Under the pieces are notes generated by a model. That model worked only from the letters and a program-made list of their open reading frames with translations, was not told the origin of the DNA and made no database searches. A stretch of 63,994 nt of DNA, filler included, from Basidiobolus ranarum (Eukaryota), in the NCBI GenBank assembly GCA_040143965.1. It is 4 parts of 4 records of this genome, joined end to end, with 100 filler letters (N's around TTAATTAATTAA, not from the genome) between each part and the next. Parts side by side here need not be neighbours in the genome. Positions count along the whole stretch, not along the records: positions 33,305 to 49,790 come from JASJQH010000340.1; 3 more parts are not named here. One strand, given 5' to 3'. Of the stretch, positions 40,007 to 43,000 are shown one piece after another. The position numbers and the translations under genes are program-made. Within the stretch, counting starts at the first letter, position 1. Each line of letters begins with the position of its first letter.

Positions 40007-43000
40007 TCAATGGCCTACCTGTTCCACAAAATTCAGGGCATCTTCTTTCGTAATACAATTCACTCGAGAGACTTTGTTTGTGAATGTTACGCCGTAGAAT
40101 TTGTCGGAATTAGCCAGCATCTCGGGACGGAATGTGGTTGTGATAAACTGCCCAGTCTCTGACAGTTCATGAATCATAGCTATAAACGTATAATTGGTTA
40201 AGGGATGTTTTTCAAGTTTCTACAAAGGTTGAGAATCATGTAAATCCAACGAAAGGATACAAGCCACAGCAGTTCTGTATACCGCATCAAGATTGGCGTC
40301 AATCTCATCAAAGAGATAGAATGGAGCAGGGTCGCATTGTTGAATAGCAAATATCAGCCCCAGAGCAACAAGTGATTTTTGGCCACCAGAAAGTTGTTGC
40401 ATGCGAAGGCCTTCATCGGTTTTGCTATTGAAGGAGACCTACAACAGGAACTCTTTAACAACTGCAACACAAGCTTCATGTTACATATTTTTCACTTACT
40501 TTGATAGCGACACCGGTGTAGTTATCGATAATACCGCCACGATCCGCTTCTTCATCCTCATCATCTCCCTGTTCCTAAATATCCACACTGAGTGAGAAAA
40601 GACAATCGAAGTACGGAGAAATACTGGTTATATAGAGATATAGTTACCCGTTCTATTCGTTGTTCCAAAATCAATTCGCCCCGACCAAGTGGAACGAGTT
40701 TCTCAAAGATCTCTGCAAAATATTTGGCCACTTGTTTGAAGGTTCTCTCAATAGCCTCATCTTTGCGTTGGTCAAGAACATCTATAAGATCTTGAATGGC
40801 ATTGGCAGACGTATCAAGTTCATCTTTCCGTTTGATGAGTGCATCCCGTTGTTTGGTGAAGTTGTTGTACTGTTCGAAAGCTTTTTTGTTGACATGAGCA
40901 TATTTTTTCAACCCTTCATTAACCTTGTGCAGTTTCTTAAGTAGCTTTTGGGATCCAGTTTCCTGGTACTTTTCGAAAGCTTCTTCAGGAAGAACACCAA
41001 GTTCACGAATGTTCTTCGTGCATTCTTCTTTTTTTTGAAGTAGAAGTGTTCGTTTAGATAAATATTTCTCGACGTTCTTTTGTTGTCGCTGAATGCTTCG
41101 AGCATGTTCAAGTTGCTCGCTCTTGCTGTTTTCTAATTTTCCACCTAGCTCTCTGGTTTCGCTAATAAGATCATCCAATTCTTTTTCAATCTCTTCAAGC
41201 CTTGAGGTTACTTCGGAAATATTTCTTCTTGTACTAATGAGTTGTTGTCGCTTAGTATCTAGTAGTTGATCAGAGTCTCCTCCAACCATGCTCTCAATCT
41301 TGACACTAAGTTCGGAATGCCTTCTTCTAAGATTGACGTTCAACTCACTCTCCAGAATGTTTCGTCGAGTTTCGAGATCAGTTCTTGATGAGGCAGCCCT
41401 AATTAGGTCTTCCCGTAACTGCTTAGTGAGCTTTGCCAAACTCTCTAAGCTTCTCTGTTCTTCGACAGAGAGCCTAGTAGAAAGAGTGGTTCCCAGTTCG
41501 GCTTGATATGTCTCCAGTTGACTATTCAAAGCTCGCACACTTGACTGCAAATTGTGGAATGCTTTCTGCTTCTGGTCAAGAGCCTCTTTGATATTAGATT
41601 CCTCTTTGTTCTTTGAAATAAGCTCGAGTTGCAAAGGCTCACGGCTATCTTGAAGTTGCCTTCTTTTGGCTTCAGAAAGTTGAATTTTACTAAGGATCTG
41701 GGTGATGTTTTGGTCCATTTTGGCGATATCATTCTTCACTTCAATGGCTCGCGATTCATCAGATTCAAATTTCATCTTTAATGACTTGATAGTTTTGATC
41801 GTTTCTAGTCGCGATCTTCTGGTGTCATGGTAACCACCAGTGAGAGCTCCCTTACGATCAACGCGGTCGCCTTCAAGGGTGATTGCATTCAGGTTGTGAG
41901 ATCTGGAATACTTGGAAGCGACTTCCAGATTAGGACATATAATAGCTTTGCCAAACACTTGCTGAATAGCTTTTAAGAACCTATTGTCGAAAGTCAATTT
42001 TTGAATCATTGGAATGGCATCGTTGCTTTCCGGATATCTGGGGACATGAGGCTTTAAACGATTCAGAGGCATGAACGTAACTCGGCCAACACGCTCTCTG
42101 TTCAAAGCCTCCAACACTTTCGTGGCAGTGTCATCCGTATCAACCACAACATGGAATAAACTTCCACCAGCAGTGACTTCAACGGCGGTCCTAAATGTGT
42201 CGTCGACATCGAAAAGCTCGTATAAAGGACCATACACGCCAGAAAGATTCAATTTATCTGCAATACGCTTGATAGCCTGCAATCCGCTGCTGGTGTTTTT
42301 GTCCATAGCACTGGTGAGGGTGCGTTCATTGCGTCTTAACTCCTCTCTGCAGTTACTCACCACCGAATCAAACTTAGCATCTTCTCTCCATAACTCCTTT
42401 CTTTTGTCTGTTTGCTCATCTCTTTGCACTTTTAATTGATTGATTTCTGAGCTGTGCGTGTCTAAATTTAATTTCCGTTGATCTAATCTTTCACGAATAG
42501 CTCGGCACTCGTTCTCAATAGATGCTTTTCTTTCAATCAAAGATTGAATTTCGCTTTCCAAATCACTCATCTACAAACATACACGATCAACAACTTATTT
42601 TTACGGCGATGCCATCCGACTCTTACCTGAGCTGTTTGGACAGAAAATGTGCTTTGAATGTCGCTAATCTCTTTTTTGAGCCACCTATCCCTTTGGGCTT
42701 TACTTGAGAACTGGGTACTACGTCCTTGCTTAGCATACAGAGATTGCAACTGAAGTTCCCCATTTTCAAGTCTGGCATAAGTGAGTTATGCATCTGTATT
42801 AGTAAACCCCAAACGATACGTTCCACTGGTAAAATAAACATCTTTACCCCTCTTTGAGTTCGGTTTCCCTTCTAACAGCAGACTCATATTCGGGAGTTAC
42901 ACGAGATAGTTCTTGCTCTTTGTCGTTGATACTCCTCGTGATTCTTTCTAATTCTTGGGAAAGTCGTTGCTACAAGAAATGAGATACATGTCTAGTAACT

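Follow-up and report, generated by a model that had tools for sequence, protein, structure and literature searches.

The fungus reported to be richest in minor (U12-type) introns is Basidiobolus meristosporus (PMC10639083), for which the published counts are 249 minor introns, or 0.554% (Larue & Roy 2023, PMC10639083), and 237, or 0.5% (Olthof et al. 2024, PMC11347168). Genes for U11, U12 and U6atac are described in the zoopagomycote lineage, together with a putative divergent U4atac in B. meristosporus (PMC11347168), and Rhizophagus irregularis is credited with 205 minor introns (0.272%) and all four minor small nuclear RNAs (PMC10639083). The donor consensus of U12-type introns is described as closely followed in fungi (PMC10639083). 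Human SMC3, the gene for the cohesin protein, is a minor-intron gene (PMC4667643, PMC7507305), and its minor intron is placed at hg38 chr10:110596551-110598138 (supplementary file 3 of PMC7507305), coordinates that give a length of 1588 nucleotides (nt). In preprint reports SMC3 is named among the genes with retention of A-type (AT-AN) introns after loss of CENATAC, and is one of 18 minor-intron genes conserved between human and maize. Here we describe an intron with U12-type splice signals in the SMC3 gene of Basidiobolus ranarum (intron 16 of 17), within a 63,994-nt stretch of four joined parts from assembly GCA_040143965.1, which we refer to as the window.

SMC3 intron 16 occupies positions 40260..40180 on the minus strand, and is a GT-AG intron of 81 nt in phase 1. 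The 5′ splice site, GTATCCTTTC (40260..40251), is preceded by an exon ending in CTT, so there is no AG at positions -2 and -1. The first nine of these nucleotides, GTATCCTTT (40260..40252), lie directly at the exon boundary and match the sequence that we take as the U12 donor consensus, RTATCCTTT, at nine of nine positions. The branch-point motif CCCTTAAC (40204..40197) is TCCTTAAC-like, with an exact CCTTAAC core and one flanking base that departs from the consensus as we take it; its second A is at 40198, with 18 nt from there to the 3′ junction. The 3′ splice site AG (40181..40180) has the context TATAG/CT, and the intron ends in TTTATAG. In the flanking exons the reading frame runs GCT GTG GCT T before the intron and CT ATG ATT CAT after it, and the joined codon (T/CT) specifies serine. 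The spliced protein thus reads AVA-S-MIHEL at the junction, a conserved segment of the C-terminal ATPase head, and the intron begins 11 codons past the Walker B/D-loop stretch. If the intron is retained, an in-frame TAG is met 13 codons in (40222..40220, minus strand), closing an open reading frame (ORF) at 40220..40438, and the final part of the ATPase head is lost. This TAG is 202 nt upstream of the junction of intron 17, which is the last junction of the gene.

Besides the in-frame stop within it, two lines of evidence show that the segment 40260..40180, with its U12-type donor and branch motifs, is a genuine intron. First, homologues lack exactly these 27 codons: in tblastn comparisons with four fungal SMC3 proteins (from Gigaspora, Paraglomus, Phycomyces and a chytrid) each alignment has a single gap at this place, with high identity in both flanks. 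Second, the deposited B. ranarum SMC3 protein (P0122) is reproduced letter for letter from the window only when intron 16 is excised, as found by stepping along the window with a script that admits exact matches alone. Because the match to P0122 without intron 16 is exact, the public gene model already excludes 40260..40180. A reading of the sequence made before this analysis (the sequence-only reading) had placed an 81-nt, phase 1 intron with these donor and branch motifs at 40180..40260 and had the unspliced frame stopping inside it; all of its coordinates and motifs hold, on the minus strand, and the stop that it expected is the TAG described above.

The gene has the full-length architecture of an SMC protein and is closest to SMC3. 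The coding region spans 39767..44643 (minus strand) and consists of 18 exons and 17 introns encoding 1249 amino acids, according to the deposited B. ranarum model. The window product and P0122, which is named SMC3 and contains PF06470 and PF02463, have an identical core of 1191 residues, and identity to P0122 (1249 residues) is 100% over the large exon of 640 residues; the B. meristosporus SMC3 (P0123, 1194 residues) shows 89% identity over that exon and likewise reads AVA-S-MIHEL at the junction. The best matches in the PDB are solved SMC3 chains (E value 5e-14 with exon 17 from the window as query, and 8e-34 with the homologous exon from a vertebrate), and chains of SMC1, SMC2 and SMC4 score far more weakly than those of SMC3. 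Exon 16 (40261..40438, minus strand), immediately upstream of the intron, contains the signature motif LSGGQKS, the Walker B motif and the D-loop, and aligns to residues 1100-1158 of human SMC3; exon 17 (40019..40179, minus strand) aligns to human residues 1160-1211. It is followed by intron 17 (40018..39944, minus strand), a U2-type intron of 75 nt in phase 0 (GTAGGC...TTATTAG).

We compared intron 16 with the other introns of SMC3 and with those of an SMPD4-like gene elsewhere in the window, a set of 32 introns of which 30 are U2-type and two are U12-type. The U2-type introns are all between 51 and 79 nt, and SMC3 intron 16 is the longest of the 32; the other U12-type intron, intron 3 of the SMPD4-like gene, is 79 nt and ties with the longest of the U2-type introns. 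The U2-type donors are degenerate and very weakly conserved beyond GTA: 28 of the 30 have A at +3, but only 14 have G at +5 and 16 have T at +6, and donors such as GTCTAC, GTATAA, GTACAT and GTAACT are seen in the two genes. None of the 30 has the donor of intron 16, and none has CCTTAAC. The last exonic base is G at 16 of the 30 U2-type introns and at neither of the U12-type introns. In a position matrix derived from these 30 introns, the probability is 3.7e-4 for GTATCCTT and 1.7e-3 for CCTTAAC within 20 sites, and by our own arithmetic the product is about 6e-7 per intron; chance is thus too unlikely a source of the two motifs even over tens of thousands of introns. An AG at the last two exon positions (A-2 G-1) has been linked to use of the major spliceosome (PMC11347168), and intron 16, with its upstream exon ending in CTT, has the lack of AG that goes with dependence on the minor spliceosome. 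We consider it probable from these signals that intron 16 belongs to the U12 (minor) class and is removed constitutively. The motifs, and the machinery published for the genus, suggest how this would proceed: the U11/U12 di-snRNP (small nuclear ribonucleoprotein) would recognise the donor and the branch site jointly, U6atac would then replace U11, and the minor spliceosome would remove the intron.

The second U12-type intron, intron 3 of the SMPD4-like gene (21119..21197, plus strand), is a 79-nt GT-AG intron in phase 1 that has GTATCCTTAC at its donor and TTCCTTAAC at its branch site, with 13 nt between the branch A and the 3′ junction. The gene has 16 exons in the window, and it encodes exactly the sequence deposited for a sphingomyelin phosphodiesterase 4 of Basidiobolus (P0121, PF14724). 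Pfam searches with seven ORF fragments of this gene gave no match, and none of the papers covered by a literature search links SMPD4 with minor introns. In a scan of the whole window, an RTATCCTT donor combined with CCTT[AG]AC and a nearby AG or AC occurs at two sites only, SMC3 intron 16 and the plus-strand site at 21119, and the other 14 RTATCCT sites in the window have no branch motif nearby. When the window was simulated 300 times under a first-order Markov model, a much looser pattern had a mean of 0.10 matches per window; at least one match was seen in 31 of the 300 and at least two in none of the 300. A search of the window against Rfam at gathering thresholds returned no RNA families. 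The sequence-only reading had counted two minor introns in 64 kb, and two are found here, intron 16 and the one at 21119..21197; it had also taken the pair as a sign of high minor-intron density for a fungus, which is right but was already published for the sister species B. meristosporus, and a single window chosen as interesting cannot add an estimate of density.

The position of intron 16 is much more widely distributed than its splice signals. Metagenome contigs were scanned with an alignment of the upstream exon, which gave 80 SMC3 loci, and the flanking exons were located in each. In 41 of these a GT...AG intron with both exons visible is present at the same codon and in the same phase, and in a further 13 there is a GT at the same point but the contig ends ahead of the next exon. 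Eighteen loci have uninterrupted coding sequence and are intronless at this codon, and five are continuous with small in-frame differences in length; two are ambiguous and one is cut within the exon. An intron at the codon and phase of intron 16 is thus found in 54 of the 80 loci, or in 38 of 62 clusters after collapse at 97% exon identity. None of these 54 orthologous introns has an RTATCCTT donor and all are classed as U2-type.

Several of these loci are informative. One (L033) is from a vertebrate, with an exon identical to residues 1100-1158 of human SMC3 and flanks that read as vertebrate SMC3. Its intron lies in codon 1159 in phase 1 and is a U2-type GT-AG intron of 356 nt with the donor GTAAAG and a CAG end, and both of the introns that precede it are also U2-type. 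Among the fungal loci, two that are Glomeromycota-like (L004 and L005) and one that is Umbelopsis-like (L007) have U2-type introns at the site, and one (L002) that matches a Mortierella protein at about 99% identity is intronless there. In three related, animal-like loci (L040, L059 and L061) the donor of the orthologous intron is GTATCCACC. Only in L040 is the 3′ end of the intron within the locus, and there it has a normal pyrimidine tract and no CCTTAAC, so a GTATCC donor alone is not diagnostic. Relic U12 signals were sought in the orthologous U2-type introns of the relatives and across all 180 kb of the loci, and none that is convincing was found; nor was any intermediate state seen among the 54 orthologous introns. 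Judged from these alignments, the position of intron 16 is ancient and common to vertebrates, other animals and other early-diverging fungi, and its U12 character is found, among the loci sampled, solely in the SMC3 gene of the window. The sequence-only reading had proposed an ancient position shared with animal SMC3, and this stands for the position, which has the same codon and phase in the vertebrate locus, but does not extend to the intron type, which is U2 there and in all 54 loci.

The position of the preceding intron, SMC3 intron 15 (40439-40499, minus strand), which is in phase 0 and just before VSFN, is also common to the vertebrate locus L033 and an animal-like locus (L018). As this position is shared as well, the boundaries of the exon with the signature motif and Walker B coincide between B. 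ranarum and animals.

How a U12-type intron came to occupy a site that is otherwise U2-type can be accounted for in two main ways. The one we prefer, tentatively and with somewhat less than even confidence, is that intron 16 arose by a major-to-minor type switch on the Basidiobolus branch, from an ancient U2-type SMC3 intron. An ancient U2-type intron would have drifted into the full U12 consensus in the Basidiobolus lineage, a drift that the very degenerate U2-type splice sites found there would make easier. A single change is needed, and the switch fits both the loose U2 signals and the low density of minor introns that has been reconstructed as ancestral for Zoopagomycota, a result that its authors call notable (PMC10639083). 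The direction of the change is an unusual one: conversion is generally assumed to be nearly exclusively from minor to major (PMC10639083), although it has been argued to be possible both ways by means of "minor-like" introns (PMC11347168).

That general assumption speaks for the other way, in which fungi and animals inherited the intron from their common ancestor in U12-type form; Basidiobolus alone would have kept it so, and in the other lineages it would have become U2-type or disappeared. In NOP2 no more than three point mutations are needed for such a switch (PMC11347168), the minor-intron status of SMC3 in human and maize is old, and both of the U12-type introns in the window are in phase 1, the phase that minor introns favour (PMC10639083). 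Retention from the ancestor would nonetheless require independent conversions in vertebrates, in other animals, and in the Glomeromycota-like and Umbelopsis-like fungi. The lack of a U12-type intron at any of the 54 other loci tells against it, and these loci include a vertebrate, despite the near-ancestral minor-intron densities that vertebrates are described as keeping (PMC10639083); the Glomeromycota-like loci are U2-type even though that group has some 205 minor introns, and the reconstructed ancestral density in Zoopagomycota, as published, is low. We regard ancestral retention as only slightly less probable than the type switch. The probability that remains falls to an intron spliced by the U2 machinery in spite of its appearance and to other scenarios.

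There are some points that count against placing intron 16 in the minor class, and they bear on the possibility that it is a U2-type look-alike removed by the major spliceosome. The U12 branch motif consensus starts with T, and intron 16 has C there. The usual distance from the U12 branch site to the 3′ end is about 10-15 nt, and intron 16, with 18 nt, stands at its long edge. TTAAC is present in the last 45 nt of five of the 30 U2-type introns, and, with U2-type donors in both genes as degenerate as they are (G at +5 in fewer than half), the major spliceosome might tolerate intron 16. It has also been argued that sequence class and the spliceosome that is used can be decoupled in "minor-like" introns (PMC11347168). 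Such a look-alike is improbable, given the joint probability of the two motifs in the U2-type matrix, the absence of G at -1 and of AG at -2/-1, the second full-consensus U12 example in the same window, and the hundreds of minor introns known in the genus. Placement of intron 16 in the U12 class is thus the reading we retain.

A speculative further idea, raised in the sequence-only reading as a throttle on cohesin output, is that slow or regulated minor splicing of intron 16 limits functional SMC3 and hence cohesin. It appeals to the truncated ATPase head, lacking its final strands, that retention would produce, to the location of the stop upstream of the last junction, which could make the retained transcript a target of nonsense-mediated decay, and to human cells in Roifman syndrome, where retention of the SMC3 minor intron reaches 31.9% as against 2.1% and correctly spliced transcripts are fewer (PMC4667643). 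We think it very unlikely, as cohesin works in relatives whose SMC3 has a U2-type intron at this site or is intronless there, and minor splicing is reported not to be associated with proliferation in Rhizophagus, in a study that argues for largely neutral evolution (PMC10639083). No special regulatory role needs to be assumed for intron 16.

Some other features of the gene and the window are of note. At the 3′ end of SMC3 (39767-39943, minus strand) the B. ranarum frame and the deposited model continue for 54 residues past the conserved C-terminal EHAQ. The B. meristosporus SMC3 ends at EHAQ, and the Glomeromycota proteins end at the equivalent EQPQ; the B. ranarum tail is either a real extension through a lost stop codon or an annotation problem. 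At the other end of the gene, intron 1 (44563-44628, minus strand) has the unusual donor GTCTAC. In the remainder of the window, one AT-AC candidate was considered and rejected: CCTTAAC is present at 53433 on the minus strand with ATATCTT upstream, but this is coding sequence, within the codons that follow the ATG of a long ORF (52820-53458, minus strand). The ORF begins with ATG then MPALTLCTITEE..., and the codons that follow happen to hold CCTTAAC; its product may be an SMI1/KNR4-type protein, which it seems to resemble. Stretches of 44 N also occur, six in all, grouped as three pairs at a spacing of about 16.6 kb (16568-16667, 33205-33304 and 49791-49890); they resemble masking or assembly gaps and not biology.

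Taken alone, intron 16 adds a single minor intron to a genus whose richness in them is already on record, and it changes little. It is of modest interest in two respects. First, the cohesin gene SMC3, known to hold a minor intron in human and maize, does so in a fungus too, apparently by way of a different intron. Second, it provides a clean and testable candidate for major-to-minor conversion, the direction usually assumed to be nearly forbidden, and the candidate switch sits in the sole fungal lineage in which minor introns seem to have increased.

In comparison with known systems, the human SMC3 minor intron belongs to the same gene family, but it is reported as A-type and is 1588 nt long by its coordinates; in the vertebrate locus the intron at the site of intron 16 is of the GT-AG kind, has GTAAAG as its donor and is much shorter. 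The human minor intron is thus apparently a different intron from that in codon 1159, as judged from intron type, from coordinates and from the non-human locus L033. A vertebrate intron in the same codon and of minor type, as expected for an orthologue of the human minor intron, was not found: the L033 intron is U2-type, in a comparison that runs through L033 and not through human itself. Class switching in TM9SF1 and MIOS (PMC11347168) resembles the situation at intron 16 in that introns at an orthologous position are of minor type in one lineage and of major type in the others; unlike the "minor-like" introns of those genes, intron 16 has the full U12 consensus. Rhizophagus irregularis is similar to B. 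ranarum as an early-diverging fungus with a canonical U12 consensus, and its minor introns are biased away from phase 0; unlike B. ranarum, the Glomeromycota-like loci L004 and L005 carry a U2-type intron at the position of intron 16. Another close parallel is with the catalogued minor introns of B. meristosporus, which are from the same genus, are of the same class and have the same consensus motifs as SMC3 intron 16.

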